From a virus: DNA of 64,000 nucleotides. The position numbers and the translations under genes are program-made. Under the pieces are notes generated by a model. That model had not been told where the DNA came from. It worked only from the letters and a program-made list of their open reading frames with translations, and searched no databases. Shown piece by piece: positions 18,011 through 56,924 of the stretch; the first letter of the stretch is position 1; every line of letters begins with the position of its first letter. Where the stretch lies: the IMG/VR virus record IMGVR_UViG_3300045988_116708, positions 1 to 64,000 of that record, one strand, 5' to 3'.

Positions 18011-18047
18011 AAAGTGATTGTTTTTACGTCACTTTTGTTTAGCTTTA
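18011..18047 (+). promoter_or_regulatory. Promoter with AAGTG-N13-CACTT operator (site a)
   Basis: AAAGTGA-N11-TCACTTT at 18011-18035, followed by box TAGCTTTA at 18040-18047. Confidence 0.55.
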
Positions 18048-18238
18048 CACCGTGAAAATAATGAATCATCTTAGTGGTGTTTGATGACAAAAGGATATTA
18101 AATAGGCTTTCTTGGAGTATATACCCTAAACACCACATCAAGGGTATAGAAACTCGAAAGCCTTCGCTTTTTATAGATGAATACAATAGGCATACATGGC
18201 AAATCCATTGGTTAATTTCTAAAATACTAGATTTAATT

Positions 18239-19222
18239 ATGTCGAGACCTAATAAGACAGGTTTGAGTTATTTCCCAATGGATGTTGATTTATTCCAAGA
18301 CATACGAATAAGGAAACTAATCAAGTATCAGAGTGGCAAGGCTATAACAGTATATGCTCTCCTGCTATGTCTTATCTACCAGCGTGGGTACTACATGAGG
18401 TGGGATGAAGAGTTGCCCTTCATTATATCGGAACAAACCGGGTTTGAAGAGGCGTATATACTGGAGGTCATCAGAAGCTGCATGACACTAGGGTTATTCT
18501 CCAAGAAACTGTATGATGACGAACAAATCATTACGTCAAAAGGGATTCAAGAGCGATACCTGTATATATGTAAACTGCTCAAAAGAAGAGTGAGCATTAC
18601 TGAATATTTGCTTATTGATGAAGAAAAGGAGCTTGTTACTTCTCAAGAAACCGGGGTTATTTCCGGAAAAACCCCGGTTATTTCCGAAGAAACTGCTTTA
18701 AATTCGGTGAAAATGCAACAAAAGAAAAGAAAGGAAAAGGAAATAAAAGAAATCTCTCTATTGAGAGATAAAGAAAAGTTTCCCCCTCCCGAGGTTGTAG
18801 ACAAAACATTAAGCGAATGCTATGATGAACTATCATGTGACAGAAGTTGGATTGAAATCGTAACGATGAATACACGTAATTCCGGTCATAAGGATTTTAC
18901 GATAGACATGTTCGGAATGTATTTAAAACGTTTTTTCGAGAAGCTCCAAAACGAGGGAGAGGTAAGAAAGTCTCCCAAGGATGCAAAATCGCATTTCTCC
19001 CGTTGGTTGAATATTGAACTGAAAAAGAAAGGCAATTATGAACCAAAACCAATTACCAACAACATCTACGAGCAGAAGCGAATTGATTCTGAGCGGAGAA
19101 AATCTAAACTCATGGCTGAGTTCGCAGAAGCGGACGCAAAATTCCTTGCAGAACAAGAAGCTAAACGAAAAGCAGTTGGCTTTATTGGAGAAATATCCGA
19201 CACCTTCCCGGATGGCGGTTGA
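18239..19222 (+). CDS. Replisome organiser (DUF4373 / Lin1244-like, DnaD-related N-terminal domain)
   Basis: GLSYFPMDVDLFQDIRIRKLIKYQSGKAITVYALLLCLIYQRGYY matches the N-terminal DUF4373 pattern. ATG at 18239 of track ORF 18074..19222. Confidence 0.7.
   Translation: MSRPNKTGLSYFPMDVDLFQDIRIRKLIKYQSGKAITVYALLLCLIYQRGYYMRWDEELPFIISEQTGFEEAYILEVIRSCMTLGLFSKKLYDDEQIITSKGIQERYLYICKLLKRRVSITEYLLIDEEKELVTSQETGVISGKTPVISEETALNSVKMQQKKRKEKEIKEISLLRDKEKFPPPEVVDKTLSECYDELSCDRSWIEIVTMNTRNSGHKDFTIDMFGMYLKRFFEKLQNEGEVRKSPKDAKSHFSRWLNIELKKKGNYEPKPITNNIYEQKRIDSERRKSKLMAEFAEADAKFLAEQEAKRKAVGFIGEISDTFPDGG
18647..18695 (+). repeat. Intragenic direct/inverted repeats (GGTTATTTCCGrA x2)
   Basis: CCGGGGTTATTTCCGGA and CCCCGGTTATTTCCGAAGAAAC. 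The same core occurs inverted at 33555-33575 and 47321-47360. Confidence 0.6.
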
Positions 19223-19778
19223 TTACAATCCTGACCTGCAAGGGAAACTTGCGAAGTCGAATCTTACACTTGCGGATATTGCAATGAATGACAACATACC
19301 TTCGTTGTCCATCATCCGCTCCGTGTACGGTGAAGACAATGCACTCAGGTGGCTGAAAGTACAGTTTGACAGCCTAAACGATTATGCGGAGCAAGGGAAG
19401 GGTATAGCAGACTCACAACTGGATGAACTTTGTATTCTTGTCCTGGGTGAGTATTATTGGATGAATTTAGCTGAAATATGCAACTTCATATCCAGGCTCA
19501 AGTTGGGAAAATATGGGCAGTTTTATGGAGCCATTGGTCCGATGAAGATTACTTGTTCGCTCCTGGAGTATATTAAAGAGCGACGTATTGACATCGAACG
19601 TTATGAACGAGAGCAATACCGCATTCAACGCCAGAAGGAGATAGAAGAACGTGGGAACAACATGATTCCTTATGCTGAATATCTTGATCGAGAACGGAAA
19701 CTTGTAGAAAGTGGGGATAAGGATGCTATTGAAAGAGCTTCGAAGCGTATTGGAAGCACTTGTTTGTCAACAGGTTAA
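19212..19778 (+). CDS. Hypothetical replication-module protein
   Basis: ATG at 19212 of track ORF 19038..19778; overlaps the organiser stop. Confidence 0.55.
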   Translation: MAVDYNPDLQGKLAKSNLTLADIAMNDNIPSLSIIRSVYGEDNALRWLKVQFDSLNDYAEQGKGIADSQLDELCILVLGEYYWMNLAEICNFISRLKLGKYGQFYGAIGPMKITCSLLEYIKERRIDIERYEREQYRIQRQKEIEERGNNMIPYAEYLDRERKLVESGDKDAIERASKRIGSTCLSTG

Positions 19779-19881
19779 TTAAAGATAAAGCCTTGTGAAT
19801 AAAACAGGTAACGTTTGTTTACAAGTGGAAAAATAAGTAACTTTATACCTGTAAATCAGAAATATATAAAATATAAGAGCA

Positions 19882-20028
19882 ATGAAAACAATTAGAAAAT
19901 TAACTGAAAGGGAAGTGGTACTCAACAGGCTCATACAACCTATTCTTATGCCTGTTATTTACTCACTAAATTACAAAGTTAGTAACCAAACAGATGATAA
20001 TTCAAGGTTATCCAGTAATTTGTAACGG
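19882..20028 (+). CDS. Hypothetical 48-aa protein
   Basis: Hand-translated ORF that begins in the AAGAGCAATGAAAA junction motif. Confidence 0.35.
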
Positions 20029-27259: not shown

Positions 27260-27826
27260 ATGAGGTTATCAATAAAACAGGAAAATTTTTGTAATTACTA
27301 CATTGAATGTGGGAACGCATCCGAATCTTATCGTCGTGCGTATTCTTGTAAGAATATGAAAGACAACACTGTTAATCGGAAAGCGATTGAACTGTTAAAT
27401 AACGGCATGATTACGGCAAGGGTCAAAGAATTGCAATTAGAACAAAAGGAGAAGTCAGATATAACTAAAGAGCGTATCTTACAGGAATTATCCGGTATTG
27501 CATTTTCTACCATCGCCGATATGCATAATACTTGGATTGAACGTAAGGAATTTGACCGGCTTTCTAAGAAAGAAAAATCATCAATAAAAAGTATTTCTAC
27601 AAAAGTGCTTAAAAAGAATATCGGCACAAGAGATGAGCCGGAAATAGTGGATGTTGAGTATGTGAAGATAGAGTTGTACGATAAAATAAAAGCTATTGAG
27701 CGTATCTGCAAGATGCTTGGTTTTGATTCACCAACAGAAGTGAATATCAACAAGGACAGTGAGGATATGTCCCGTGAAGATATGTTGGATGAATTAGAAC
27801 GTCTGGAAAAATTGCGTGAGGAATAA
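27260..27826 (+). CDS. terS: Terminase small subunit (Terminase_2 family)
   Basis: LSIKQENFCNYYIECGNASESYRRAY... is the typical N-terminal motif. The gene precedes TerL. Confidence 0.8.
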   Translation: MRLSIKQENFCNYYIECGNASESYRRAYSCKNMKDNTVNRKAIELLNNGMITARVKELQLEQKEKSDITKERILQELSGIAFSTIADMHNTWIERKEFDRLSKKEKSSIKSISTKVLKKNIGTRDEPEIVDVEYVKIELYDKIKAIERICKMLGFDSPTEVNINKDSEDMSREDMLDELERLEKLREE

Positions 27827-29292
27827 TGAGATTAACTGATGCACAGGTAAAAAGAAAGCTTGAGTTGGAGCGTCTGCTATTGAAAATGGATGCTCCCAAT
27901 ATGTTTTATAAATTTATTCCGTATATCAATGCGTCATATACCAGTATGTGGTTCCACAAGGTTATTGCTGATCATTGCCAAATGCTTTTTGATGGTAAAA
28001 TCAAGAATTTAATGGTATTCATGCCGCCACAAAATGGGAAATCTGAAATTGTATCTCGTAATTTCCCAGCGTTTGCTTTAGGCTGTAATCCTGATCTTAA
28101 AATTGTCGGTACATCGTATAGTGCTAATCTTGCAGAACAATTCTCGCGTTCTATTCAGCGTATTATAGATAGCAAGGAGTATCAAGCTATATTCCCCAAT
28201 ACTTATCTTAATGGAAGTAATGTCAGGACGTGTGTAAAAGGTTATTTGCGCAATGTGGATATATTTGAGACGGTGGGGCATAAAGGTTTTTATAAGGCGG
28301 TTGGTGTCGGTGGTTCTTTGACGGGAACGCCAGTGGATATAGCCATTATTGATGACCCGGTAAAGGATGCAATGGAAGCCTATTCTGTTACTTACAGAGA
28401 GCGCGTGTGGGATTGGTATACTTCAGTGTTGCTTACACGTCTTCATAATGAAAGCAAACAGCTTTTTATTATGACGAGATGGCATGACGATGACCTTGCC
28501 GGACGCATATTGAAGAAGGAACCTGACAAATGGACTGTATTGTCTGTTCCTGCTATACGCGAGACACTTGAGGATGGGAATGATTTTGACCCTCGCAAGG
28601 TAGGCGAGGCATTGTGGCCGCAACGTCATTCTTTGGAAAGGCTTCTTGACGCACAAAAACGTTCGCCAAGATTCTTTTCTGCGTTATACCAGCAGCATCC
28701 CACCGTTGAAGGAGGTAATATTATCAAGGAAGCGTGGTTTGGTCATATTTCTGCTTTTGACTTTAAGAAAAAGCTTAAATATGAGCCTATAATCTTTTTT
28801 GTCGATACGGCTTATACGGAAAAAACGAGCAACGATCCGACTGGCATACTCGGTTCCTGCATGATTGGTAATGATATATATATTGTGTGTGGAAAGAAGG
28901 TGAATATGAAGTTCCCTGAATTGTGCCGTTTTCTTCCTTCCTATGTACGTGACAATGGATATGGAAGTGATAGTACGGTAAGGATTGAACCGAAAGCAAA
29001 TGGTCTTTCCGTAATAGACCAATTACGCGAAACAACCAACCTGAGTGTTGTTGCCACTTCTTCACCAAAAGACAGCAAAGAAACAAGGTTAAACGCTGCC
29101 TCTCCTTTTGTTGAGAGTGGACGTGTGTATCTTGTGGATGGAGATTGGAATGAAATGTTTATTGATGAGGTGTGCGGTTTTCCTGCAAAACCTCATGATG
29201 AGTTTGTGGATTTGCTTTGCTACTCGATAGATTATCATCACAGAAGCTTTAATGAATTGAGTGACGAGGAGATTCTAAGGGATTTTCTTTGA
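27826..29292 (+). CDS. terL: Terminase large subunit
   Basis: 488 aa with a Walker A-like PPQNGKS, a Walker B-like IAIIDDP and a C-terminal nuclease region. Confidence 0.85.
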   Translation: MRLTDAQVKRKLELERLLLKMDAPNMFYKFIPYINASYTSMWFHKVIADHCQMLFDGKIKNLMVFMPPQNGKSEIVSRNFPAFALGCNPDLKIVGTSYSANLAEQFSRSIQRIIDSKEYQAIFPNTYLNGSNVRTCVKGYLRNVDIFETVGHKGFYKAVGVGGSLTGTPVDIAIIDDPVKDAMEAYSVTYRERVWDWYTSVLLTRLHNESKQLFIMTRWHDDDLAGRILKKEPDKWTVLSVPAIRETLEDGNDFDPRKVGEALWPQRHSLERLLDAQKRSPRFFSALYQQHPTVEGGNIIKEAWFGHISAFDFKKKLKYEPIIFFVDTAYTEKTSNDPTGILGSCMIGNDIYIVCGKKVNMKFPELCRFLPSYVRDNGYGSDSTVRIEPKANGLSVIDQLRETTNLSVVATSSPKDSKETRLNAASPFVESGRVYLVDGDWNEMFIDEVCGFPAKPHDEFVDLLCYSIDYHHRSFNELSDEEILRDFL

Positions 29293-29302
29293 TTATATGA
29301 AA

Positions 29303-29350
29303 GAAGTGACTCTAAATACGTCACTTCTTTAAATTAAATTCCTATATTTG
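29303..29350 (+). promoter_or_regulatory. Promoter with AAGTG-N13-CACTT operator (site b)
   Basis: GAAGTGAC-N9-GTCACTTC at 29303-29327; box TATATTTG at 29343-29350. Confidence 0.55.
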
Positions 29351-29761: not shown

Positions 29762-30700
29762 ATGCGACAACCAAATGAAATCTATTTGAACGGGAATAAT
29801 AGTACCGTACAAATTGCGTCAGCTCACGAGACGAGCAAGACTTTCTCCTATAATGGGAACGATGTCCTTTTTGACATCAAAGATGATGTTATGGTTAACG
29901 CCACACAGCTTGCTAAAATCTATGGAAAGCGCCCTGCTGAATATTTGAGATTGCCAGATACGGTAAAATTGATTAATGCAATTACAAGAAAATATGGTAT
30001 TTCTGAAAATCAATTAGTTGTAACATCAAAAGGTGGGAATATTAGCGATATGGGAAAATCCCACATCGTTGATAATCAACAAGGTACTTGGATGCACAGA
30101 TTAATAGTAGTTGATTTCTGTCAATGGTTAGACATTGATTTGAAACTATGGTGTACCGAGAAGCTTGACGAGTTAATGAGATACGGTATGACCGCCACGC
30201 AGCCAACGCTTGAGCAGATGATTAACAACCCTGACCTTGTTATAAGTCTTGCCACACAACTAAAGAGCGAACGTGAGGAGAAGCAACGATTGGCATTGGA
30301 AGTGCAGAAAAAGGAACAGGAGAAGCTGTCTATCATAGAGGGAACAAAGCCAGCCGTAGTATTCACGGAATGTGTAACAAGCTCGTCTACCAATATTCTC
30401 ATAGGAGATCTTGCGAAACTTATCACTCAAAACGGATATAAGATTGGAGAAATAAGGCTTTATGAATGGATGGTAGAGAACAAGTACCTTATCAGAAAGC
30501 AGCGATACAGCAAGTCGAAGAATAAATACGTAAATGACTATATGCCCACACAGAGGACGTCAGAAATGGGATTGTTCTTTGTGAAAGAAAGACCGATAGT
30601 GTCGGGTGGAAGTCCCATTTTTATAAAACATACCTGTTACGTTACAGGTAAAGGCCAGGTGTATTTTCTGAATAAGTTTAAATCTTTAATGGCTGCATGA
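29762..30700 (+). CDS. KilA-N / KilAC (ANT) antirepressor
   Basis: N-terminal VNATQLAKIYGKRPAEYLRLPDT...GTWMHRLIVVDFCQWL is a KilA-N pattern. C-terminal ILIGDLAKLITQNGYKIGEIRLYEWM is a KilAC pattern. Confidence 0.75.
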   Translation: MRQPNEIYLNGNNSTVQIASAHETSKTFSYNGNDVLFDIKDDVMVNATQLAKIYGKRPAEYLRLPDTVKLINAITRKYGISENQLVVTSKGGNISDMGKSHIVDNQQGTWMHRLIVVDFCQWLDIDLKLWCTEKLDELMRYGMTATQPTLEQMINNPDLVISLATQLKSEREEKQRLALEVQKKEQEKLSIIEGTKPAVVFTECVTSSSTNILIGDLAKLITQNGYKIGEIRLYEWMVENKYLIRKQRYSKSKNKYVNDYMPTQRTSEMGLFFVKERPIVSGGSPIFIKHTCYVTGKGQVYFLNKFKSLMAA

Positions 30701-34708: not shown

Positions 34709-34733
34709 ATAAATATTATTATTTTTTTTGTTT

Positions 34734-34770
34734 AAAAGTGGCATAGTGAATGTCACTTTTGTTATATTTG
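34734..34770 (+). promoter_or_regulatory. Promoter with AAGTG-N13-CACTT operator (site c, portal operon)
   Basis: AAAAGTG-N13-CACTTTT at 34734-34760; box TATATTTG at 34763-34770. Confidence 0.6.
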
Positions 34771-34893
34771 CACCATAGCATCTGATGCTAACGTATCCTT
34801 TCACGTTCTCGGGTATACGTATTGTTTTATCCGGTCCCTTTTGGAAGGTATTTATTGTTGTTCAACTAATTACCGTATGAAGATGTACGGAAC

Positions 34894-40820: not shown

Positions 40821-41048
40821 ATGAACCAGAAGGAATTATATAATAAATTACAGTCAGGCGAAACGGTTTATTTACTTGACGATTTTGAAGAAGCTGTTAT
40901 CCGTTTATATTTCGATAACGGCCAAACAAAATCATATATAAAACATCATGGACGTAATGAAATAGAAATTCCGCAATCCGATGATACAGTGTGTGATATA
41001 ATTCTTGGAGGAAAAGAGATTTCAAAATCAGAATATGACAAATACTAG
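40821..41048 (+). CDS. Hypothetical 75-aa protein between synthetase and hydrolase
   Basis: Acidic small ORF; its stop overlaps the next start. Confidence 0.5.
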   Translation: MNQKELYNKLQSGETVYLLDDFEEAVIRLYFDNGQTKSYIKHHGRNEIEIPQSDDTVCDIILGGKEISKSEYDKY

Positions 41049-41466
41049 TACTTTATTAGAAAAAGCTCTTCAAATAGCAACTGATGCGCATCTTTATCAA
41101 GTTGACAAAGCTGGGGTACCTTATATTTTCCATCCTATCCGTGTCTCAAACAGATGTTCTACTGATGACGAAAGGATTGTTGCTTTGCTGCACGATACAA
41201 TAGAAGATACCGAAGTTACCGCTGAATATTTACTTATGGAAGGGTTTCCTCGTAATATAGTAGATGCTATACTTTCTGTCACTCGCAACGAGGATGAAAA
41301 CTATGAAGATTTCATAAAACGCTCTAGGCTTAATCCTATAGGAAGACAAGTAAAACTACATGATTTAGAAGACAACATGGATATAACACGTTTGAATGAA
41401 CTTACAGAAAAGGATCTTTACAGATTGAACAAATACATAAAAGCATATAAATATCTTAAAGAATAA
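41035..41466 (+). CDS. HD-domain small alarmone hydrolase (SAH, RelA/SpoT hydrolase-type)
   Basis: AHLYQVDKAGVPYIFHPIRV and ALLHDTIEDT match the H...HD...ED motifs. ATG at 41035 of track ORF 41005..41466. Confidence 0.75.
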   Translation: MTNTSTLLEKALQIATDAHLYQVDKAGVPYIFHPIRVSNRCSTDDERIVALLHDTIEDTEVTAEYLLMEGFPRNIVDAILSVTRNEDENYEDFIKRSRLNPIGRQVKLHDLEDNMDITRLNELTEKDLYRLNKYIKAYKYLKE

Positions 41467-41553
41467 TCGCTGATGTACAATTACATTCAGTTTCACGGCA
41501 CGAAGTACAAGATTACTCTCGTGCCGTGCGTTTATTATGATAGTTTAACATTG

Positions 41554-41615
41554 AAAGTGGCGTTTAAAACGTCACTTTTGCTACCTTTGTGTCAGAAGCG
41601 TATGAAGATGTACGC
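41554..41615 (+). promoter_or_regulatory. Promoter with AAGTG-N13-CACTT operator (site d) and leader hairpin
   Basis: AAAGTG-N13-CACTTT at 41554-41578. Box TACCTTTG at 41582-41589. Hairpin GCGTA-TGAAGATG-TACGC at 41598-41615. Confidence 0.6.
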
Positions 41616-41758: not shown

Positions 41759-42478
41759 ATGGACAGAAAACAACAAGTATTGTTGAGATTGAAACCGAAA
41801 GTGAAGGCATTCGGGTTCAATTCAAGGGAATTAAAGGGTATTGCTGCCAAGATTGCCGATAACCTTACTTCCGCAGATGATGCCTCAGATGAAGACGTAA
41901 ATGCAGAAATTGACAAAGAGATTGACTCCGCATTACGTTACTTGCCTTTCGGCCAGTCACAAGCCAATCGCTTGCTTGATGAATGGAAGAAAAATCACCC
42001 TGAAACAGATGACGACGACAACGATGACGATGATGACGACGACGGAGCTTCGGATAATCAAAGACGTCAAGCTGGTTCAAACACCAAAAATCCCAAAAAC
42101 AAAGGAAAGAATGATGATGCTCCGGAATGGGCTAAAGGTTTGGTTCAGACAGTACAAACACTGAATGACGAAATCGCAGCATTGAAAGGTGAAAAAGTTA
42201 CCACTACACGTAGAGAGAAACTTGAAACCCTTTTAAAAGATGCTGGTACATTCGGAACTCGCACATTGAAATCCTTCAATAAAATGAAGTTTGAAAATGA
42301 TGAAGAGTTTGAAGAATTCTATTCCGAAGTTGAGGAAGATTTAAAATCTTACAACCAAGAACGTGCCGACGCAGGACTATCTAGTTTGGGGAATCCTCCA
42401 GGTGCAGGAAGTAAGAAACAAGAAAAAAATGAAGTATTAACCGATGAAGAGGTTATAGCAATTGCTAAAGGCCTTTAA
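41759..42478 (+). CDS. Scaffolding protein
   Basis: 239 aa, highly charged, with a poly-Asp tract (DDDDNDDDDDDD). It lies upstream of the capsid gene. Confidence 0.6.
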   Translation: MDRKQQVLLRLKPKVKAFGFNSRELKGIAAKIADNLTSADDASDEDVNAEIDKEIDSALRYLPFGQSQANRLLDEWKKNHPETDDDDNDDDDDDDGASDNQRRQAGSNTKNPKNKGKNDDAPEWAKGLVQTVQTLNDEIAALKGEKVTTTRREKLETLLKDAGTFGTRTLKSFNKMKFENDEEFEEFYSEVEEDLKSYNQERADAGLSSLGNPPGAGSKKQEKNEVLTDEEVIAIAKGL

Positions 42479-42911: not shown

Positions 42912-44249
42912 ATGAATGAATCATTATTTATTGAATTTGTAAAAAAAATATGGCCCAAATTGAGCCTATATGTGAAAGAAAAGACCAATGGAACAAATAA
43001 GAATTTGACCTATCTTCACAAAACTATGCTTACCAGAGTATATTCTCCTGATCAAAAATGGGAAGGTACTTCTGCTAACACTACTTATGTAGCAGCGGAT
43101 ATGGTAGCTATGGATTCTCCTTTGTCTCCCAAGAAACGTGACTCTATTGCACGTTCTAGTGGTGAATTGCCTAAAGTTGGTATTAAAAAGATTCTGAGAG
43201 AAACTCAGATCAACGCTATTAATATCATGAAAGCACATTTGTCTAATGCCACTACAGAGGAAGCGCAAAAATCTCTCAAAAACAGAATCTTTTCTCGATT
43301 AACTGATGACGGAACCGCATGTTCTGTTGGTATTGATGAAAGGAATGAAGCTAATTTCCTTACTGGGCTGTCTGATGGGGTTATTATTGTTGAAGGTGAT
43401 GATGATAAAAATTCCGGTCTCGGACTTCGTGTAAATTATGGTTATTTGCCAGAACATAGTTTTGGTGTTGTTACTACCGGAGAAGTAACAGGTGATGATA
43501 TTGAAAGAGTTATAGGTAAAGCCAACGATGACGGGAATAGCATTTCTGTTATCATGTTAGCGTTGTCTACCTATAACAAAATGCGTCAATCTCAATGGGC
43601 TAAGGAATTGGTGGCAAGTTATCGAGGGCAAACCTTTGATAATGAAACAAAGTTGCCTGTTCCCACTTCTACGTTGTTTGATGAAGCATTTTCTGATCAA
43701 TATAATGGCATTTCATTCTTTAAGATTGATCGTTCTGTCACTTATGAAAAGAATGGTAAAAGAGTTTCTTATAAGCCGTGGAATGCAAATAAACTTATAT
43801 TCCTTCCTTCTGCTGACAATGTAGGTTCTTTTGTATGGGGAACTTTGGCTGAATCTACTAACCCTGTCAAGGGAGTAGAATATACCATTGTTGATGAATA
43901 TAAGCTGATTAGCCGTTACTCCAAAACAGACCCGTTGCAGGAATTTACGAATGGGCAGGCTCTTTGTTTGCCGGTTATTGAGAATGTAGACCAGATTTAT
44001 TCATTGGATATTCTGGAAGCTCAAACAGTAGATACAACGAAAGAATCTGAGGATTCTACTGATGTAAAGATTACGATTTGGGGAGTAACTTACAAGAAGC
44101 CAGAATTTGTGACAGAATACAATAAAATCGCTGGTAAAAACTTGACTTCCACCGTTTCCGATGATAAACTTATCGCGGCAGTCAACAGATTGAGTGATGC
44201 AGACGAAGCATCGTTGAAAAAAGCGGTTGAATCCCATAAAGCAACATAA
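42912..44249 (+). CDS. Major capsid protein
   Basis: 445 aa. Called from its position after scaffold/decoration and before the connector genes. Confidence 0.6.
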   Translation: MNESLFIEFVKKIWPKLSLYVKEKTNGTNKNLTYLHKTMLTRVYSPDQKWEGTSANTTYVAADMVAMDSPLSPKKRDSIARSSGELPKVGIKKILRETQINAINIMKAHLSNATTEEAQKSLKNRIFSRLTDDGTACSVGIDERNEANFLTGLSDGVIIVEGDDDKNSGLGLRVNYGYLPEHSFGVVTTGEVTGDDIERVIGKANDDGNSISVIMLALSTYNKMRQSQWAKELVASYRGQTFDNETKLPVPTSTLFDEAFSDQYNGISFFKIDRSVTYEKNGKRVSYKPWNANKLIFLPSADNVGSFVWGTLAESTNPVKGVEYTIVDEYKLISRYSKTDPLQEFTNGQALCLPVIENVDQIYSLDILEAQTVDTTKESEDSTDVKITIWGVTYKKPEFVTEYNKIAGKNLTSTVSDDKLIAAVNRLSDADEASLKKAVESHKAT

Positions 44250-47444: not shown

Positions 47445-47498
47445 TTTTAAAATATATTAATTCTTATCTGTTTTATATTGAATACAGATAAAAATATC

Positions 47499-48927: not shown

Positions 48928-50322
48928 TTAGTATTGTTTGTATTGCTTAGATACCTTATATTCTTTTCCTGCATAATTAAATGTCCAAATAAATATAGGC
49001 AAATAAACATATCTCATTTGACCGCCTAAATTTGTTGTTTGTCCGGCTGCTAAAGCGCCCAATTTTGATGCATCATCTGTATATAATACAATATTTTCAC
49101 TCAATCCATCTTTTACCTCAAACTTAGTAAGAGATATCTCTTTAGAACTTGTGTTGGTTATGTAACAATACACAGACCCTGTTATATAACCATTAATGGA
49201 TACAATAGATGAAGAGCTTATACCCAGATTCATAAAATCGGAAATCTCAGCTGATACAACTTCGCAAGTGGCAGTATGGGCACCATCTTCTGTAGTTATT
49301 GTTATTGTAGAAGTACCTTCCTTCAATGCTGTAACCTTTCCATTATTGTCTACAGAAACAGTGTTGGGTGCAGAACTGCTAAATTTTACATTTTTATTCT
49401 CTGCATTTTCAGGTAAAATAGAATATGTCAATGTATAGCTTTCTCCATTCAGAATCTTAACTGAAGATTCTGTAAACTGAACTCCTTTTACCGAAAAAGG
49501 CAAAACATTCACAGTACACTGCGCTTTAAAATTCCCATCATTAGTAGTGGCAATTATGTTACATGTACCTTTTGCCAATGCAGTCACCAATCCGTCTTCT
49601 ACCTTTGCAATATTAGGATCGCTGGAAGACCATTTGATACTTTTGTCCTTTGCATTTTCAGGAGATACAGTAGCTGTTAGAGTAAATGACTTGCCGGCTT
49701 CAATAGATTTAGTTGTTTCATTCAATGTAACTCCTGTAACCTTAATAGGATTCACTTTAACAACACATTTGGCGTAGGTATCACTTCCTTTGACTTTGAC
49801 TGTAATAGTACATTCACCATCGGAAACGGCTGTAACCTCGCCATCTGCATTAACCGTTGCTATAGTTTTATCCGAAGACTCCCACTCCACTTCTTTGTTG
49901 GTAGTATTTTCAGGTTCTATCGTATACTCCAAACGGAATGATTCACCGGTAGTCATCGTCTTCTCACTCTCAGATAGTTTGATATCAGTTGCTTCAATTG
50001 GAGTTACAGTGACCTTACATATATCTTTCAATTTTAGATTAAAAGAAGAAACTGATATAGTAACCTCTCCAACAGACTTTCCATAAACAATACCGTTTTC
50101 AACAGTTGCAATTGTTTCATCAGAAGAATTCCATTCATATTCGGGAGCGGGTAAATCTGCTGGCGAATGGCTGACAGTGAGAGTTATTTTCTCACCAACC
50201 TTTACTGAAGCTTCACTTTTAGAAATTTCGATAGATTGTACAACAGGTTTGTCATCATCGCCACAAGAAGATAATGATAGAATAGAAACAATAGATAGTA
50301 ACAATAAAATAGTTCGTTTCAT
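48928..50322 (-). CDS. Surface lipoprotein with five tandem Big_2 (bacterial Ig-like) domains and an unknown C-terminal domain
   Basis: Signal/lipobox LSLSSCG. There are five repeats of the pattern V.VG....L.....P.......W.SSD..IATV...G.VTA...G...I. Confidence 0.8.
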   Translation of the reverse strand: MKRTILLLLSIVSILSLSSCGDDDKPVVQSIEISKSEASVKVGEKITLTVSHSPADLPAPEYEWNSSDETIATVENGIVYGKSVGEVTISVSSFNLKLKDICKVTVTPIEATDIKLSESEKTMTTGESFRLEYTIEPENTTNKEVEWESSDKTIATVNADGEVTAVSDGECTITVKVKGSDTYAKCVVKVNPIKVTGVTLNETTKSIEAGKSFTLTATVSPENAKDKSIKWSSSDPNIAKVEDGLVTALAKGTCNIIATTNDGNFKAQCTVNVLPFSVKGVQFTESSVKILNGESYTLTYSILPENAENKNVKFSSSAPNTVSVDNNGKVTALKEGTSTITITTEDGAHTATCEVVSAEISDFMNLGISSSSIVSINGYITGSVYCYITNTSSKEISLTKFEVKDGLSENIVLYTDDASKLGALAAGQTTNLGGQMRYVYLPIFIWTFNYAGKEYKVSKQYKQY

Positions 50323-50362: not shown

Positions 50363-50447
50363 ATTTATATATACAATTCATCCTTTTCTTATATTATATT
50401 AAATAGTCCTACAAGGTTAATAAAATAAAATACTGTCTGCTAACTAC

Positions 50448-50476
50448 GTCACTTTTGCGATTATGCCATAATTTTG
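50448..50476 (+). promoter_or_regulatory. Half-operator GTCACTTTTG plus -7 box TAATTTTG (site f)
   Basis: Only the right half-site is present. The box lies at 50469-50476. Confidence 0.4.
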
Positions 50477-50512: not shown

Positions 50513-50709
50513 TATCTTTGTGGTGCTAACAACTTATAGGAGCGGCAAACTCCTATGGCTTCATCATTGGAGCTATTTTTTTGCCAGTACATATAACAAG
50601 TAGTATCATAATTTAAGATATTGCGCACGAACGGTGGGGTAACAGAAATGTCCCCAAACTAAATTCCTATGAGTTTGTTAGCAGCCGTGAACGTGCGCAT
50701 TTTTTTGTT
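50513..50709 (+). promoter_or_regulatory. Second -7 box (TATCTTTG) and about 190 nt of structured leader ending in a terminator-like hairpin
   Basis: Long-range pairing of 50524-50540 with 50666-50683. Hairpin ATAGGAG/CTCCTAT. Stem GCGCACG (50623-50629) / CGTGCGC (50692-50698) plus T7, ending 3 nt before the ATG. Confidence 0.45.
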
Positions 50710-51570
50710 ATGCTAACAAACTCGATTCAAGTTCTAAAACAAACAGAATTGTGTGGACGGCAATTCACAGTTTACGGAACGGCAGAAAATCCATTGTTCT
50801 TAGCCAAAGAAGTAGCAGAGTGTATTGAACACAGTAACATCACCGTAATGCTTCAAACAATAGATGAAGAAGAAAAGGTGAAAATCACCCCTAAACAATC
50901 CTTAGGGGACTTAGTTAACTACAAAGAATACAACTTCTTAACTGAAGATGGCTTATACGAAGTCCTCATGCAATCCCGCAAACCTATCGCAAAGCAATTC
51001 AAGAAGGGAGTTAAACAAATCCTTCACGAAGTACGAACTATTGGCGGTTACATCGCCACCAAGCAAGACGACACCCCCGAAGAAATCATGGCACGTGCGC
51101 TAACCATCGCACAAGCTACCCTTGCCAAAAGAGAGGAACGGTTAAAGCAGCTTGAAGCTCAAGCCGAACAACAGCAAGTCACCATCGAGATTCAGACAGA
51201 GGAAATCAAGAAAGCAGCACCGAAAGTCAGCTACTACGACAACCACTTGCAGAGTGTGAACACGCAGACAAGCACCCAAGTAGCCAAGCAGATTGGCTTG
51301 GATGCGGAGAAGCTTCACAAGAAACTGAAAGAAATCGGAATCATCTACAAGCAATCGGGGCAATGGCTCCTTCATGCTCCTTATTCCACTTGGGAGCTGC
51401 ATTCCACCCGTACACAGACGTACACACGTTCGGACGGTTCGACAGGAACAAGTGTATATACGGTATGGACTACCAAGGGCGTGCGTTTCATCATCGCATT
51501 GTACGAGAATGATTGGAATGTGAAGAAATCCATTAAGCAGATAAAGGGCGAGATGAATCCGGCCGCATAA
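50710..51570 (+). CDS. Bro-N / KilAC (ANT) antirepressor
   Basis: N-terminal FTVYGTAENPLFLAKEVAECIEHSN is a Bro-N pattern. C-terminal KVSYYDNHLQSVNTQTSTQVAKQIGL is a KilAC pattern. Confidence 0.7.
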   Translation: MLTNSIQVLKQTELCGRQFTVYGTAENPLFLAKEVAECIEHSNITVMLQTIDEEEKVKITPKQSLGDLVNYKEYNFLTEDGLYEVLMQSRKPIAKQFKKGVKQILHEVRTIGGYIATKQDDTPEEIMARALTIAQATLAKREERLKQLEAQAEQQQVTIEIQTEEIKKAAPKVSYYDNHLQSVNTQTSTQVAKQIGLDAEKLHKKLKEIGIIYKQSGQWLLHAPYSTWELHSTRTQTYTRSDGSTGTSVYTVWTTKGVRFIIALYENDWNVKKSIKQIKGEMNPAA

Positions 51571-51739: not shown

Positions 51740-52153
51740 TTATTCCCTTATTGCCATTTTAAGTGATTCTTCTAGTTTTCCTGCATATTTAAATATATCG
51801 TCTATACTGTCAATCTGAAGCCATTCGCAACTCTTGTAGTTATCTAATGGTATTCCTATCTGCTTCTTTCTTGCGCCAATAGAGATACGGCATATCCAAA
51901 ACCACTGGCTGTTATCAAGGTTTACGACGAAGTAGCTCTTGTAGTCTCTATAGGTTATACGTGCCACATCCACGCTTTTTCTTAAAATACTTCTTACGAT
52001 ATTGTAAGCATCCAATTCTTCTTGCGTCGTTACAACACCGGATTCTTTATCCATGTATACAACTCCGTCCGGGAGTTGCTCTTCTGTAGCTATACTATCC
52101 TTTTGCTTTTGGATACGTTCTGCAAGTTGTAAGATTTGATCTTTAAAGTCCAT
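51740..52153 (-). CDS. Hypothetical protein, possibly HsdR-N-terminal-like (PD-(D/E)XK-related) domain
   Basis: EELDAYNIVRSILRKSVDVARITYRDYKSYFVVNLD...WICRI resembles HSDR_N_2-type proteins as I recall them. The likely start is MDFKDQ (52153), with a -7 box at 52183-52190. Confidence 0.4.
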   Translation of the reverse strand: MDFKDQILQLAERIQKQKDSIATEEQLPDGVVYMDKESGVVTTQEELDAYNIVRSILRKSVDVARITYRDYKSYFVVNLDNSQWFWICRISIGARKKQIGIPLDNYKSCEWLQIDSIDDIFKYAGKLEESLKMAIRE

Positions 52154-52257
52154 GCTTTTATTGTTGTATAATAATATATGCACAAATATATTTTATATAA
52201 CAATATAAACAAAATTAAAGATAAAAAAATAATCTATTAAATATGTTTTTGCTATGT

Positions 52258-52315
52258 ATGTGGCATTTAATACGTCACTTTTATTATCTTTGCAATGCCG
52301 TGTGATGTTGCACGG
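52258..52315 (+). promoter_or_regulatory. Promoter with degenerate operator (site e) and leader hairpin, tape-measure operon
   Basis: ATGTG-N13-CACTT. Box TATCTTTG at 52285-52292. Hairpin CCGTG-TGATGTTG-CACGG at 52298-52315. Confidence 0.55.
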
Positions 52316-52338: not shown

Positions 52339-55300
52339 ATGGCTGGATTACACTTCGACATAACCGGTGACAACTCCAACTTTATACGTAAACTTCATGA
52401 GTGTGAAAATGGAGTAAAAAACACATCCCGACAAATAGAACAAAGTGGGTTAGGTATAGAAGATTTATTTAACCGTATGACTAAAGCTGCTGCCGCATTC
52501 GGAGTTGGTTTCACTGCGAAAGAATTAATTTCAAATATAGCACATGTTCGCGGCGAGTTTCAACAATTGGAAGTTGCATTTAAGACAATGCTTGGTAGCG
52601 AAGATAAAGCTAATGCTCTTATGCAACAGTTGGTCAAAACAGCTGCTACTACACCATTTGATTTGCAAGGAGTTGCAAATGGAGCCAAACAGCTTCTTGC
52701 TTACGGAGAAAACGTTGAGAATGTCAATGATGATTTGATACGTCTTGGGAATATAGCAGCAGGTCTTTCTCAGCCGCTTGGTGATATTGTGTATTTGTAC
52801 GGTACTACCATGACGCAAGGACGGTTATACACGGCGGATTTAAACCAATTTACTGGCCGTGGTATCCCTATGATTCGCGAATTAGCAAAAGTATTTGGTG
52901 TCGCTGAAGGGAAAGTAAAAGGTTTGGTTGAAGCAGGGAAGGTTGGTTTTCCTGAAGTGCAGAAAGTTATCCAGAATCTTACAAATGAAGGTGGAATGTT
53001 TTTCAACTTGATGCAGGAACAATCTAAAACGATTGCTGGTCAGATTTCAAATATTGAAGATGCAATTGCTACTATGTTCAATGAAATTGGTAAAGCCAAT
53101 GAAGGTATTATCAATGATGCTTTGTCTGGGGTTTCTTATCTGGTTGAAAACTACGAAAAGGTAGGAGCTCTTTTATTAGAAATAGTAGGAACTTATGGAG
53201 TATACCGTACAGCCCTTATGGCTACGACTGCATTGCAGGCTTTGCAAGCTTCCGGTATAACTGCTTTAACGGCGAAAGAAGCTATTCATTATGGGTGGTT
53301 AGTGCTTACGAAGAAAGCTCAAGATGCCTTAAATTTATCCATGCTTAAAAATCCTTATATATTGGTTGCTGCATCTATTGCAGGATTGGTTTATGGTATA
53401 TATAAATTTGCTACAGCAGAAAGTGATACGGAACAAGCAATTCGTAAAACGAACGATGCACTTGAGGCACAAAATAATCATTATGAAGAGTTGAAAAATA
53501 AGGCAAGTCAACTCTCTAATATTTTAAGTGATGAATCTAAATCTATAGAAGAGCGTTTCATTGCATATCGTAAACTTCAGCGTTTAATGCCAGAAGTTTT
53601 TAAAGATATGGATTGGGAAGCAGCTAAACGGAAAACAAATGCTGAGCTTACAAAACTTGAGAATGATGAACTTTTAAGACAGCAACGTATTGGGCTAAAA
53701 ACAAAGGTTGTAATGTCTCAACAAAAAATACAGGGGCTAAGGAGTAGCTTAATAAAAACTCAAAATGCTGGTGGGTATACTGGGGCATTAAAGGAAGATT
53801 TAGCTGCTGCTGAAAAAGAATTGGAAATATATCAAGAGGCCCTTAAGGCTTTTGAGGAAGCCAAAGAAGAATCGAAAAAAGCTAAAAATGCTCCAACTGT
53901 ACAAGACAAAGAATATTGGGAGAATCAAAAAAAAGAAGCTGAAAATGCCTTAGAATCTATTGCATCTTCTCAAAAGAGATTGTTGGACGCTGGTAACTTT
54001 AAAGGTATAGATACTGCTGTTGTAAAGAGTTACAAGGATAATGTTAAAAAGCTAAAGGAGGCTGAAAAAGAACTGAAGGTTTATGACACCTCTTCCAAAC
54101 AGGAATCTGCTGCTGAAAAACTTCGCAAACAGCAAGAAGGCATTCGTTCCCAGAATGATAAGATCTCTGAAATAGAACGCAAACAGGCAATCCAGCGTAA
54201 AAGGCAGGCTGAAGATATGGAAATGGAAATCTCACAGTCTGAGATCAATGCCATGGCTGATGGATCTGAGAAAAAACGTATGCAGAGGGAATTGGATAAC
54301 CGGAAAGAGATCCAATCACTGGAAAGGCAAAAAGAAGATATGATCCAGGCTGTAATTCAAGCTGAGAAAGAGATTTTTGATGCTCAGGAAGAGTTGAAGG
54401 TTAAAGAGAATAACAAATATCAGAAAAAGACTTTTGATTCTTCTAAGGTGGATACAGAGAAGATTAGCTCTATCTGGGATACCATTATAGGGAACACGTC
54501 TAGAAAGCAACTTGATGATAAAATACGCGAACAAGAGGCGTCTTGGAACGAATATCTTATCAAGTTTGGCAACTATCAACAGAAAAGGCTGGCCATTATT
54601 GAGAAATATGATAGGGCCATAAAGGAGGCCGAAACGGCGGGTGATGTAGCTATCTTGATGAAAGAGAAAGCTAATGCGCTTGATGATTTTGACAACTCCG
54701 TAAAGAATAGTACAACCTTAATGGGGCAGCTCTTTGCTGATGCTTCCCAAAAGAGTGTGAACGAGATTCAGTCCATCATTGCAAAAGCCGAATTATTGAT
54801 GCAATACCTTGGTGCCGTTAAGGATGAACAGGGAAATGCTCAAATCGGTGGAAAGACAGTTTCAAAGAAGGATATTTTAGGTCTTGGGATAAGTGACAAT
54901 ACCCTTCAAAATTTAGAACTTTCAACCGAGCAAACAGAGGCACTAAGAAATGCTATTGGTCGTTTAAAAGAGGAATTGGGAGCAAAGAGTCCTTTTGCGC
55001 TTTTCAAAAAGCAAGTAAAAGAAGCGGCAGGTGAAATAGCGAAAGGAGGTCAGGAAAATATTGCTCGAGGGATTGCAGGGATCGGAAGTGCTATTGTTCA
55101 ATTTACTCCTGCTATATCTCAGTTTGGTCAGGATCTTGGTACAATATTTGGCAACGACGATCTTGGTAATAAAATAGCTGGTATTTCTGATGCGTTAGGT
55201 GGAGTTGGCCAAACAGCCATGGGAGTTGGCCAGATAATGTCTGGTGATATTGTAGGTGGTGCTATGAGTGCTGTTTCCGGTATTTCATCAGTTGTAAAGG

Positions 55301-56421
55301 CCTTGGATGGTTTGTTTGGTGCTGATTATTCCCGATACAATGAAATGAAGTCACAATATGAAGCTCTTAATTCTGTGTGGGATGAACTTATCAATAAGAA
55401 GAAAGAGTATATTGATATGTCTTATGGGGATGAAGCGTATAAAGTTGGGAAAGAGGCCGAAAGCCTGATAAAGCAACAAACCCAAAGATATTATGAACTT
55501 CTGAATGAATTAAGAAAAAGTGGGTCCAGTATCGGGTCAAGTTCTTTAGGCAAACGAATAGAAAAAAGACTTAATAAAGAAGATTGGGCCAGAATATCCA
55601 GTGCTGTTGGTGAATCTGTAACAAATGCAGAAACTTTATTAAATCTTTCAGCAGAACAGCTAGAAGAAGTGCTTGCCGACCCTAAGCTAGTCTCTGTCCT
55701 CAATACTGTCAACGAAGACTTTATAAAGTATATACAAGATATTGTGAATGGTTCCGAAAAATTAGAGGATATACAGAATCAAGTCAAAGAACAGCTTACT
55801 CAAGTATCGTTTGATAGCGTGTTTGACAGTTTTGTAGACACTTTGATGAATATGGATAGTTCGGCTAAGGATTTCGCTGATGATTTCACTTCTTATATGC
55901 AAAAAGCTATCCTTTCTACTATGTTAGGAAAGACATATGAAAAACGGTTGCAAGAATGGTATGATGCTTTTGCTTCGGCTAATGAAGATAAAGGCGGTAT
56001 CTCTAGTGATGAATATAAGAATCTGCAAGAACAGTGGAATAGCATTGTTAATGATGCCATTAAAGAACGTGATGAATTAAAGGATTTGCTTGGTTGGGGT
56101 TCCGATACTTCCGCTTCGCAAGATTCTACAAAACGAGGGTTTGAAGGAATGTCCCAGGATACAGCAGAAGAACTGAACGGACGTTTCACAGCTTTGCAAA
56201 TGGCAGGGGAAGAGATTAAGAATCAAATGATAAATGTTGTTGTTGGAGTTAACTCTTTAATTTCAATCTCAACAGAAGAGAATGTTACCTTGAGTAATAT
56301 CCTTAGCCAACATGTAATTACGAATGGCTATTTAGAAGATATTGTAAAACACACAAAGCTGATGCTTGGTTTTGGAGATAAATTTGATAGGATGATTACT
56401 GTTTTTAATGATAGACTATAA
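52339..56421 (+). CDS. Tail tape measure protein
   Basis: 1360 aa. The TMP core region is FKTMLGSEDKANALMQQLVKTAATTPF...LYTADLNQFTGRGIPM. It has long coiled coils and Gly-rich TM-like segments. Confidence 0.9.
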   Translation: MAGLHFDITGDNSNFIRKLHECENGVKNTSRQIEQSGLGIEDLFNRMTKAAAAFGVGFTAKELISNIAHVRGEFQQLEVAFKTMLGSEDKANALMQQLVKTAATTPFDLQGVANGAKQLLAYGENVENVNDDLIRLGNIAAGLSQPLGDIVYLYGTTMTQGRLYTADLNQFTGRGIPMIRELAKVFGVAEGKVKGLVEAGKVGFPEVQKVIQNLTNEGGMFFNLMQEQSKTIAGQISNIEDAIATMFNEIGKANEGIINDALSGVSYLVENYEKVGALLLEIVGTYGVYRTALMATTALQALQASGITALTAKEAIHYGWLVLTKKAQDALNLSMLKNPYILVAASIAGLVYGIYKFATAESDTEQAIRKTNDALEAQNNHYEELKNKASQLSNILSDESKSIEERFIAYRKLQRLMPEVFKDMDWEAAKRKTNAELTKLENDELLRQQRIGLKTKVVMSQQKIQGLRSSLIKTQNAGGYTGALKEDLAAAEKELEIYQEALKAFEEAKEESKKAKNAPTVQDKEYWENQKKEAENALESIASSQKRLLDAGNFKGIDTAVVKSYKDNVKKLKEAEKELKVYDTSSKQESAAEKLRKQQEGIRSQNDKISEIERKQAIQRKRQAEDMEMEISQSEINAMADGSEKKRMQRELDNRKEIQSLERQKEDMIQAVIQAEKEIFDAQEELKVKENNKYQKKTFDSSKVDTEKISSIWDTIIGNTSRKQLDDKIREQEASWNEYLIKFGNYQQKRLAIIEKYDRAIKEAETAGDVAILMKEKANALDDFDNSVKNSTTLMGQLFADASQKSVNEIQSIIAKAELLMQYLGAVKDEQGNAQIGGKTVSKKDILGLGISDNTLQNLELSTEQTEALRNAIGRLKEELGAKSPFALFKKQVKEAAGEIAKGGQENIARGIAGIGSAIVQFTPAISQFGQDLGTIFGNDDLGNKIAGISDALGGVGQTAMGVGQIMSGDIVGGAMSAVSGISSVVKALDGLFGADYSRYNEMKSQYEALNSVWDELINKKKEYIDMSYGDEAYKVGKEAESLIKQQTQRYYELLNELRKSGSSIGSSSLGKRIEKRLNKEDWARISSAVGESVTNAETLLNLSAEQLEEVLADPKLVSVLNTVNEDFIKYIQDIVNGSEKLEDIQNQVKEQLTQVSFDSVFDSFVDTLMNMDSSAKDFADDFTSYMQKAILSTMLGKTYEKRLQEWYDAFASANEDKGGISSDEYKNLQEQWNSIVNDAIKERDELKDLLGWGSDTSASQDSTKRGFEGMSQDTAEELNGRFTALQMAGEEIKNQMINVVVGVNSLISISTEENVTLSNILSQHVITNGYLEDIVKHTKLMLGFGDKFDRMITVFNDRL

Positions 56422-56422
56422 T

Positions 56423-56845
56423 ATGGCAGCGGGAGAATTTTATATAAATAATAAAGACACTTATACTACATGGGGTATAAGTATGGATACTTCTTCTTTA
56501 TCATCATTGATGACGCCACCTCCAATGAAAGATTTTATAGAAAACAAATCTCGTTTGGAGCACGGTAAGAGAGTCATAACATCAAATCCTAAGATTGATG
56601 AACGGAATATTACATTGACATTTAATCTTACAGCTAAAAATGAAGAGCAATTTTTTTCACGGTACAACTCTTTTTGTGAAGAATTGGCTACTGGGGTATT
56701 GCATATCAAAAGCAAATATCAACCCAGTATTGTATATAAAACTATTTATTTGTCATGTAATCAGTTCACACAGTTTATGAGAGGAATCGCTAAATTTTCG
56801 TTGAAATTAGTAGAACCTAATCCGACAGATAGGGCTATAACATAA
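56423..56845 (+). CDS. Distal tail protein-position gene
   Basis: 140 aa immediately after the TMP; called from position only. Confidence 0.4.
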   Translation: MAAGEFYINNKDTYTTWGISMDTSSLSSLMTPPPMKDFIENKSRLEHGKRVITSNPKIDERNITLTFNLTAKNEEQFFSRYNSFCEELATGVLHIKSKYQPSIVYKTIYLSCNQFTQFMRGIAKFSLKLVEPNPTDRAIT

Positions 56846-56855
56846 TTTTAATTAT

Positions 56856-56924
56856 AAAGTGATTGTTTCAATGTCACTTTTGTTATATTTGCATTCAATA
56901 AAAGCATTGTGTGAAGGCGCACAA
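56856..56924 (+). promoter_or_regulatory. Promoter with AAGTG-N13-CACTT operator (site g) and leader hairpin, fibre gene
   Basis: AAAGTGA-N11-TCACTTT at 56856-56880. Box TATATTTG at 56884-56891. Hairpin TTGTG-TGAAGGCG-CACAA at 56907-56924. Confidence 0.6.

Follow-up and report, generated by a model that had tools for sequence, protein, structure and literature searches.

The 64,000-nucleotide (nt) stretch analysed here (positions 1 to 64,000 of the IMG/VR virus record IMGVR_UViG_3300045988_116708; hereafter the window) has a G+C content of 37% and covers the greater part of a temperate siphophage or prophage with promoters of the Bacteroidetes type. Seven intergenic sites on its + strand, denoted a to g, carry all or part of a shared quasi-palindrome with a sigma-A type -7 box downstream, and we tentatively favour, at somewhat below even confidence, the interpretation that they are copies of a composite cassette in which a terminator-like hairpin is joined to a promoter. 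The first part of the proposed cassette is the quasi-palindrome (A)AAAGTGRC-N9-GYCACTTT(T), which, when transcribed from an upstream co-directional operon, would form a hairpin composed of an A-tract, a stem-loop and a U-tract, and would serve as an intrinsic terminator or insulator of weak to moderate strength. Its partner, 4 nt downstream, is the host sigma-A type -7 box (TAnnTTTG), which would restart transcription for the next module and whose T-rich sequence would prolong the U-tract. The cassette would be inherited, and would probably have spread, as one unit, marking the boundaries of the replication, antirepressor (Ant) island, portal, head, tape measure and fibre modules; at e and f, where no transcription would arrive from upstream, only the promoter half would be needed and the hairpin would decay. 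The seven sites, with predicted RNA hairpin energies where a hairpin folds, are as follows.

18009..18047, + strand: cassette a, with palindrome 18012-18034, a 5-nt gap and the -7-like box TAGCTTTA at 18040-18047; 33 nt past the stop of 17535-17978 and 5' of the replication initiator gene (18074-19222); hairpin -10.4 kcal/mol, z -3.1
29300..29350, + strand: cassette b, of the far class, with hairpin GAAGTGAC-N7-GTCACTTC (palindrome 29304-29326), a 16-nt gap and box TATATTTG at 29343-29350; begins 11 nt past the TerL stop, 5' of an open reading frame (ORF) of 109 amino acids (aa) and of Ant (29762-30700); hairpin -13.8 kcal/mol, z -6.0
34733..34770, + strand: cassette c, with palindrome 34736-34758, a 4-nt gap and box TATATTTG at 34763-34770; 27 nt past the stop of 34439-34708 and 5' of the portal gene (34894-36300); hairpin -12.2 kcal/mol
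41552..41589, + strand: cassette d, with palindrome 41555-41577, a 4-nt gap and box TACCTTTG at 41582-41589; 88 nt past the stop of 41005-41466 and 5' of 41759-42478 and the major head protein gene; hairpin -13.4 kcal/mol
50446..50476, + strand: cassette f, a half site of the far class, with ACGTCACTTTTG at 50446-50457, no left arm, and box TAATTTTG at 50469-50476 after a gap of 14 nt from CACTT (11 nt from the 12-mer ACGTCACTTTTG); a second box, TATCTTTG, lies at 50513-50520; in a divergent region adjoining the start of the minus-strand gene 48928-50322, with the c4-2 RNA (50619-50704) and then Ant (50710-51570) downstream
52255..52292, + strand: cassette e, with a degenerate palindrome, ATGTG-N13-CACTT, at 52258-52280, a 4-nt gap and box TATCTTTG at 52285-52292; in a divergent region with a minus-strand gene that starts at 52153 and has its own -7 box (reverse complement) at 52183-52190; 5' of the tape measure gene (52339-56421)
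56854..56891, + strand: cassette g, with palindrome 56857-56879, a 4-nt gap and box TATATTTG at 56884-56891; 11 nt past the stop of the tail protein gene 56408-56845 and 5' of the fibre gene (56933-62962); hairpin -6.7 kcal/mol

The exact motif AAGTG-N13-CACTT occurs five times in the window (18012, 29304, 34736, 41555 and 56857) against 0.09 expected, and in 0/100 shuffles, which bears out the motif seen in a first-pass annotation of this DNA. Allowing up to one mismatch gives eight matches in the whole window against 2.1 expected (0/100 shuffles), adding site e (52258, ATGTG) and two probable chance matches at 5209, inside a gene, and at 15580. The latter (15580-15602, ATGTG-N13-CACTT, one mismatch) lies in the 316-nt intergenic region 15463-15778 with no -7 box after it, and could be due to chance or be an eighth copy that has decayed. 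GTCACTTY is found ten times against 3.4 expected, and seven of these occurrences are the + strand cassette sites, at the coordinates given by the first-pass annotation, which had also correctly assigned a left half to six sites (ATGTG in e) and a right half only to f. Its statement that every site precedes a TAnnTTTG box holds for six (boxes at 29343, 34763, 41582, 50469, 52285 and 56884); the box of site a, TAGCTTTA at 18040, is TAnnTTTA. The distance from CAC to the TA of the box is 10 nt at a, 9 nt at c, d, e and g, 21 nt at b and 19 nt at f, confirming the division into a class at 9-10 nt and a far class at 19-21 nt, and CACTT-N4-TAnnTTTG occurs four times against 0.09 expected. In six of the seven sites CACTTTT is followed by the T-rich -7 box, which provides the U-tract of a terminator-like hairpin. 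An apparent asymmetry of the right half (A-Y-G-T-C-A-C-T-T-T-T, present in 7/7 window sites) was discarded, as it fails across relatives.

The Bacteroidetes sigma-A consensus is said to have been defined by Bayley and colleagues in 2000 as -33 TTTG / -7 TAnnTTTG. A TTTG at -33, 19-21 nt upstream of the -7 box, is absent at b, c, d and e, and a and g carry ATTG instead, with an 18-19 nt spacing; the palindrome takes up the -33/spacer region of the cassette promoters. The window promoters at 32335 and 47499 do have TTTG or TTG at -33, and the other intergenic consensus boxes (980, 27210, 32335 and 47499) lack the palindrome.

Related IMG/VR contigs number in the hundreds and come mainly from human-gut metagenomes, with 200-325 stretches recovered by each of the head, tail and terminase genes, and the cassette is kept in about 200 of these uncultured relatives. 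One IMG isolate genome, 2576861549, contains a copy that is 100% identical. Palindromes with two or fewer mismatches accompany 348/2928 + strand boxes vs 34/4654 - strand boxes (219 loci); the minus-strand sites examined proved to be real sites (c) read in reverse complement and associated with a spurious box. Across relatives the consensus extends to A-A-A-A-G-T-G-R-C ... G-Y-C-A-C-T-T-T-T. Of 68 unique sites, 56 have a 4-nt gap to the TA and 62-68 have T at positions 22-25; among the 62 unique sites linked to a promoter, 61 have a 13-nt spacer. Taking window and relatives together, all exact palindromes (41 unique, 136 instances) have a -7 box downstream and none stands alone, with a 4-nt gap in 37 of the 41 unique sequences. 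Because every exact palindrome has its box, the cassette behaves as one unit.

In the orthologous c, d and e regions of relatives the palindrome is kept and the sequence of the 13-nt spacer varies, and b orthologues keep the long gap (14-16 nt). Where ortholog sets are defined by downstream homology only, 25 of 30 unique d sequences have at most one arm mismatch. Those of e have 1-5 arm mismatches, spacer insertions or deletions, or have lost the palindrome (e.g. loci L030, L057 and L064), yet their -7 box and leader are nearly invariant; the e promoter therefore does not need the palindrome. The median for background boxes is 6 mismatches. Upstream of c the sequence is unalignable between groups of relatives, whereas downstream it is conserved, and cassette c thus probably represents a mosaic junction. 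The islands between b and c and between f and e are carried by few relatives. No recombination junction was mapped inside a cassette, the half-site f being suggestive in this respect.

Relatives whose head protein is 70% identical form a group with 4-5 paralogous sites that conform to AAGT(G/A)-(T/C)ATGAA-W-TTCATA-(C/T)ACTT. In this group, L124 (1387-1409; likewise L125, L131 and 5 others) has ATGTG-N13-CACTT followed by 5 nt and TATATTTG on the minus strand, inside the cI/cro switch region and pointing at a 252-aa repressor gene; the window's switch region has no such site, which could reflect chance or a lineage-specific use of the cassette. In L007 (around 8680-8705) and about 12 related loci the d palindrome matches the 25-nt quasi-palindrome of the window exactly in reverse complement, loop included. 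This is a hairpin inversion, as expected from template switching in quasi-palindromes.

Cassettes a, b, c, d and g lie 11-88 nt past a co-directional stop codon and fold as 8-12 bp hairpins followed by a T-run (-6.7 to -13.8 kcal/mol, z -1.9 to -6.0). In a terminator scan c alone of the seven sites passes, with 12 pairs, 3 of them G-C, a loop of 5 and a T-rich tail. The only degenerate copies, e and f, are in divergent regions without upstream + strand transcription, have no hairpin fold, and adjoin minus-strand genes with their own -7 boxes. Inner positions 7-10 of the arms vary yet remain complementary (0.77 vs 0.46, 0.56 vs 0.34, 0.59 vs 0.39 and 0.66 vs 0.49, observed vs column-shuffled). 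Among 61 unique sites, which are sequences related to one another, 83.7% of cells pair vs 74.4 +/- 1.1 in shuffles, and 81 cells are compensatory vs 47 +/- 5.7 (0/500 shuffles). Arm mismatches are transitions, mostly G.T over A.C (49 vs 22), and folding is more favourable for the + strand RNA (mean -8.9 kcal/mol vs -7.3 for the - strand RNA, with the + strand ahead in 56 cases vs 31). Where relatives lack the b island, TerL is immediately followed by a canonical GC-rich terminator. The complementarity of the arms, the flanking A- and T-tracts and the five folding sites point to selection for a stem-loop, and the hairpin-promoter model is ranked first because it explains most observations without an extra factor.

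Several observations weigh against this interpretation. The stems are A/U-rich, with 9-nt loops at a, b and g, and the predicted stability of 87 unique sites has a median of only -8.9 kcal/mol, a quarter being weaker than -5.9. Elsewhere the genome has canonical GC-rich terminators (33511, 47578, and 48909 and 63738 on the minus strand). The arms are nearly identical among paralogues with fully diverged spacers, and the fixed spacer and gap are tighter than a plain terminator needs and fit a protein-recognised site. A.C mismatches and the exact inversion of the d palindrome are tolerated; e, at a place where no RNA should contain the palindrome, is closer to consensus than background; and the shift of the far class by roughly one helical turn is evidence for a geometry-specific reader. 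The length constraint can be explained in part without a protein, since inner positions often pair and an insertion or deletion in either half would produce a bulge; insertions or deletions do occur at the relaxed site e. The conserved arms may additionally be recognised by a phage factor, which the cassette model does not require.

A second hairpin is found in the leaders of the virion operons. It has the form NNGTR-TGAWGNNN-YACNN and occurs only in operons c, d, e and g (portal, head, tape measure and fibre), being absent from operons a, b and f; the window contains four matches, on the + strand, vs 0.33 expected on both strands.

34873..34890, + strand: leader hairpin c, CCGTA-TGAAGATG-TACGG; about 100 nt downstream of the -7 box, ending 3 nt before the portal ATG
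41598..41615, + strand: leader hairpin d, GCGTA-TGAAGATG-TACGC; begins 8 nt after the -7 box
52298..52315, + strand: leader hairpin e, CCGTG-TGATGTTG-CACGG; begins 5 nt after the -7 box
56907..56924, + strand: leader hairpin g, TTGTG-TGAAGGCG-CACAA; begins 15 nt after the -7 box and ends 8 nt before the fibre ATG

Each consists of a 5-bp covarying stem and an 8-nt loop that starts with UGAAG or UGAUG, a feature kept in relatives. There, 98.7% of stem cells pair and four of the five pairs change on both sides (0/500 shuffles). Searches of Rfam in gathering and E-value modes assigned neither the palindrome nor the leader hairpin to a family, the only matches being c4-2 and, below threshold, RT-17, and pairing of the c4-2 RNA with the leader-hairpin loops was rejected, there being no complementarity. 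The leader hairpin might stabilise the 5' end, bind a protein or act in antitermination; it represents an unreported structured RNA specific to the virion operons.

If a protein reads the palindrome, the 184-aa protein encoded at 1287..1841, the LuxR-type candidate of the first-pass annotation, is the only plausible regulator and no more than a candidate; it is conserved. Over its full length it matches phrog_10300, and its C-terminal LuxR/GerE-type helix-turn-helix (HTH; PF00196, 7e-16) matches NarL/FixJ-type structures. The protein co-occurs with the head gene on the contigs of relatives, the 70% group included, and homologues with as little as 62% identity have an unchanged recognition helix. 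Its conserved Cys-rich N-terminal domain, with C-x5-C-x6-C at residues 101-114, has no Pfam family and may bind a metal or a cluster. The GerE recognition helix offers no variation to set beside the arm variants, being the same in all homologues retrieved, and distant phages with AAGAG arms (described below) have no GerE homologue within the 10 kb examined. A reading of the 184-aa protein as an extracytoplasmic function (ECF) sigma factor with CGTC as -10 was rejected in view of its strong GerE/NarL HTH, the wrong spacing to any -35-like AAC, and the presence of a sigma-A -7 box. The other candidate in the first-pass annotation, Rha, is excluded, since of 49 relatives with the sites only 3 have it; Ant 50710, in one of the 49, was rejected likewise. 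Among the ORFs scanned no further DNA-binding protein was recognised, none of the small ORFs ahead of terS and within the head region has a DNA-binding domain, and protein scans recognised no Lpa-, C-, Ogr- or RinA-like protein.

In the first-pass annotation the palindrome was taken for the operator of one dimeric regulator or for the mark of an alternative promoter-recognition factor. That these are a real and conserved promoter-linked class, placed at operon starts and at points of re-initiation after accessory islands, stands; the operator function is at most possible, and the degeneracy of e and f, the complementarity of the stem and the GC-rich terminator at the b position in island-less relatives all speak against it. 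In the form that we consider rather unlikely, though the least so of the alternatives to the hairpin-promoter cassette, one phage-encoded dimeric transcription factor binds the palindrome as DNA and activates middle and late promoters, the site centre, about 16 bp 5' of the -7 box, replacing the missing -33 element. Such a factor would account for the coupling of all exact palindromes to a -7 box, mostly at 4 nt (37/41 unique), for the N13 spacer in 61/62 sites, for the conservation of the arms among paralogues down to the relatives with a 70% identical head protein, and for the lack of TTTG at -33 in most sites. In the far class the displacement amounts to 10-12 bp, about one helical turn, and is kept in b orthologues. 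The promoters at 980 and 47499 carry another shared motif (below), so that the palindromes are not the immunity operator, and the GerE-type protein, with its invariant recognition helix, is on the same contigs as the head gene, also in the 70% group; P1 Lpa (PMC10695390) and Mu C (PMC4461284) provide precedents. Against this, the e palindrome decays or is lost in several lineages in which the -7 box and leader persist, and f is a half site. Inner positions covary without sequence preference within one genome, the identity of the c and d arms is tighter than is usual for the sites of a regulon, and a single regulon would have to span replication, antirepressor islands and virion genes. A distance of 18 bp separates the centres of the half-sites, which is unusual for NarL/GerE-type dimers, and two of the conceivable factors, Rha and Ant 50710, are absent from most relatives. 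A host regulon was also considered and rejected: a scan of 185,579 species genomes for AAGTG-N13-CACTTTT-NN-TAnnTTTG gave 67 scattered single matches in unrelated phyla and no multi-match locus.

Recognition might instead occur at the RNA level. A phage protein would bind the hairpin in the upstream transcript and set termination vs read-through, by a logic like that of N/nut or RAT/LicT, and the leader hairpins of the four virion operons, with their UGAAG loop, could serve as the loading or recognition site of the same circuit. This unites the conservation of sequence and geometry with the dependence on upstream transcription and the G.U-biased variation, and gives a place to the second covarying hairpin, with its conserved loop, in the leaders of c, d, e and g; however, no antiterminator-like protein was recognised among the genes scanned, there is no boxA-like element, the strict coupling to the -7 box is not explained by it alone, and it is inferred throughout, so that we regard it as quite improbable. 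Slightly less improbable, though still unlikely, is a combined scheme in which the palindrome and the UGAAG-loop leader hairpin would be two recognition elements of one phage-specific transcription circuit: a factor, for example the GerE-type protein, would read the palindrome as DNA or nascent RNA and set termination, read-through or initiation at each module boundary, and the leader hairpin would mark the virion operons for an RNA-level step such as antitermination, stabilisation or translational control. The remaining possibility, a maintenance repressor that silences otherwise constitutive strong -7 promoters across the prophage from many operators, in the manner of P1 C1, appears highly improbable. 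The near-consensus -7 boxes, the overlap of the palindrome with the -33/spacer region and the presence of a c4-type RNA/ant module agree with it, as does a site set that, like the P1 C1 operators, includes antirepressor and replication genes. At the early promoter beside the cI-like gene, however, the palindrome is missing and another motif is found, there is no recognised second repressor, and loss of the operator at e, which would derepress the tail genes, nevertheless happened in several lineages.

The motif at the early promoter, ATCTGTTTTATA(G/T)TG, is found at 946-957 and at 47466-47477, about 20-35 nt 5' of the consensus -7 boxes at 980 and 47499. The first of these boxes is the early rightward promoter beside the cI-like gene, and the second belongs to the Rha island, where ATCTGTTTTATA is part of the inverted repeat TTATCTGT-N12-ACAGATAA. 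The motif may represent the immunity-repressor operator class; with two exact copies only, its statistics are weak. A phage promoter class of the form GTTAA-N4-7-GTTAA-N34-38-TAnnTTTG was reportedly described by Whitaker and colleagues in 2017, and this pattern is absent from the window.

An arrangement with a single hairpin is found in distant TerL relatives (63-70% identity), which have one hairpin, a T-run and a -7 box (L305-L316 at ~8734, L361 at 7642, L329 at 5042 and L326 at 7700). Their hairpin is perfect, of 9-10 bp, with AAGAG/CTCTT or other sequences as arms, and is directly after the VRR-NUC gene (the homologue of window 11666-12073, the last early gene) and before the packaging genes, where a single late promoter would be expected. 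The window lineage appears to have multiplied this hairpin-promoter arrangement. TTAGT and TTGGT arms, too, are found in distant lineages. The AAGAG-N13-CTCTT arms were set aside as evidence for co-evolution of an operator, since they are equally a compensatory stem change and the search forced the geometry; they count for neither side.

The gene order in which the cassettes are embedded is listed below.

408-926, minus strand: cI-like HTH gene, facing the rightward early operon
1020: cro-like ORF of the early rightward operon
1287..1841, + strand: the LuxR/GerE-type protein of 184 aa, second gene of the early rightward operon
8332-9318: reverse transcriptase, further downstream in the early operon, which also includes a RecT/exonuclease module, DUF4494 (10120), an Ant-like gene (10869) and a VRR-NUC gene (11666; 11666-12073)
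18074-19222, + strand: replication initiator (phrog_2562, replication initiation protein)
27260-29292: TerS/TerL, followed by the first island, with Ant 29762 (29762-30700) and a minus-strand XRE pair
34894-36300: portal (PHROGs)
39180: head morphogenesis gene
42912-44249: major head protein; a tRNA-Gly is also in the virion region
48433 onwards: second island, with Rha (48433), a minus-strand Big_2 protein, the c4-2 RNA and Ant 50710 (50710-51570)
52339-56421: tape measure
56408-56845: tail protein
56933-62962: tail fibre

The functions that the first-pass annotation assigned to the operons agree with PHROGs for the replication initiator, portal, tape measure, fibre and both Ant genes (29762 and 50710); for its scaffold (41759) the only argument is a place ahead of the major head protein (42912), which makes the label plausible. 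The minus-strand gene between the tail genes and the tape measure promoter (51740-52183) is endonuclease-like (phrog_4225), with the ATG at 52153 as its likely true start, and is kept in 49/49 relatives, which is unusual for a homing-endonuclease-like insert. The reverse-transcriptase gene (phrog_1423, E 3e-131) is preceded at 8250-8325 by the sub-threshold RT-17 RNA motif match (33.4 bits vs a gathering score of 40.4). The c4-2 antisense-type RNA (Rfam RF02944, 50619-50704; 53.9 bits, E 5e-9, gathering score 41) is directly 5' of Ant 50710-51570, the arrangement of a c4-type RNA/ant immunity module, which resembles immI of P1/P7; only 1-3 of the 49 relatives carry this island. An annotated phage collection yielded only short DNA matches to Bacteroides salyersiae phages and head-protein matches with 32-53% identity, and no close cultured or characterised relative was found.

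Almost nothing is known of the transcription organisation of temperate Bacteroidales phages, and our literature search found no description of this motif in Bacteroides phages. The cassette provides a sequence-level map of operon starts in a lineage common in human-gut metagenomes, suggests how islands (Ant, Rha, c4 RNA, the surface Big_2 protein) can insert without silencing the downstream virion genes, and offers compact candidate insulator and promoter parts for Bacteroides engineering. Were the palindrome a regulator site, the late-gene switch of these prophages would have been identified, and were the two-element circuit true, it would be a form of multi-promoter late control without a described counterpart in Bacteroidetes phages.

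The lambda nut site consists of boxA and a boxB pentaloop hairpin (GNRA-like) and is used by the N protein. The leader hairpins resemble boxB in their 5-bp covarying stem, purine-rich GAAG-containing loop and location in the 5' region of an operon, but they have an 8-nt loop, no boxA or conserved upstream box, a distance to the promoter that varies from 5 to about 100 nt, and no recognised N-like protein. With respect to the Bacteroidetes -33 TTTG / -7 TAnnTTTG motif (cited in PMC6847099), the seven sites have a -7 box at or near consensus and differ in that the -33 TTTG is mostly absent and the palindrome is there instead.

In Mu, C activates four late promoters, and the site of this dimeric activator overlaps or abuts the -35 region (PMC4461284). 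The location of the palindrome is similar, but no C/Mor homologue was found here and the evidence favours hairpin selection. Eleven late promoters of P1 share an Lpa-binding inverted repeat (PMC10695390) and, like the cassettes, are dispersed and combine a good -10-type box with a conserved inverted repeat just 5' in place of a -35 element. Here, by contrast, the repeat is 23-25 bp vs 9-bp arms in P1, no Lpa-like protein was recognised, replication and antirepressor genes are included, and in several lineages one promoter does without the repeat. Of the features of activator-dependent late promoters, the cassettes have an inverted repeat at a fixed position (4-nt gap in 56/68, N13 in 61/62), but neither a dependence of the promoter on the repeat (decay at e) nor a restriction to late genes (the replication initiator and two Ant islands).

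The closest analogues by anatomy and genomic behaviour are the PeSL (promoter-early stem-loop) cassettes of T4-type phages, composite terminator/promoter stem-loops found in many copies at the borders of variable blocks (PMC4122927, PMC2839356). Both are short stem-loop and promoter units, repeated within a genome and, here probably, placed at variable-block borders and hence at mosaic junctions, and inheritance of stem-loop and promoter as one repeated unit is observed here as well (41/41 unique exact palindromes, seven window copies). The present cassettes differ in having a Bacteroidetes-type host, a sigma-A -7 box, a temperate siphophage as carrier, seven copies rather than dozens, and diverged loops with no sign of recent homogenisation. 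Their host-specific -7 box, the overlap of U-tract and promoter, the mixed gene set and the leader hairpin distinguish them from PeSL, P1 and Mu alike.

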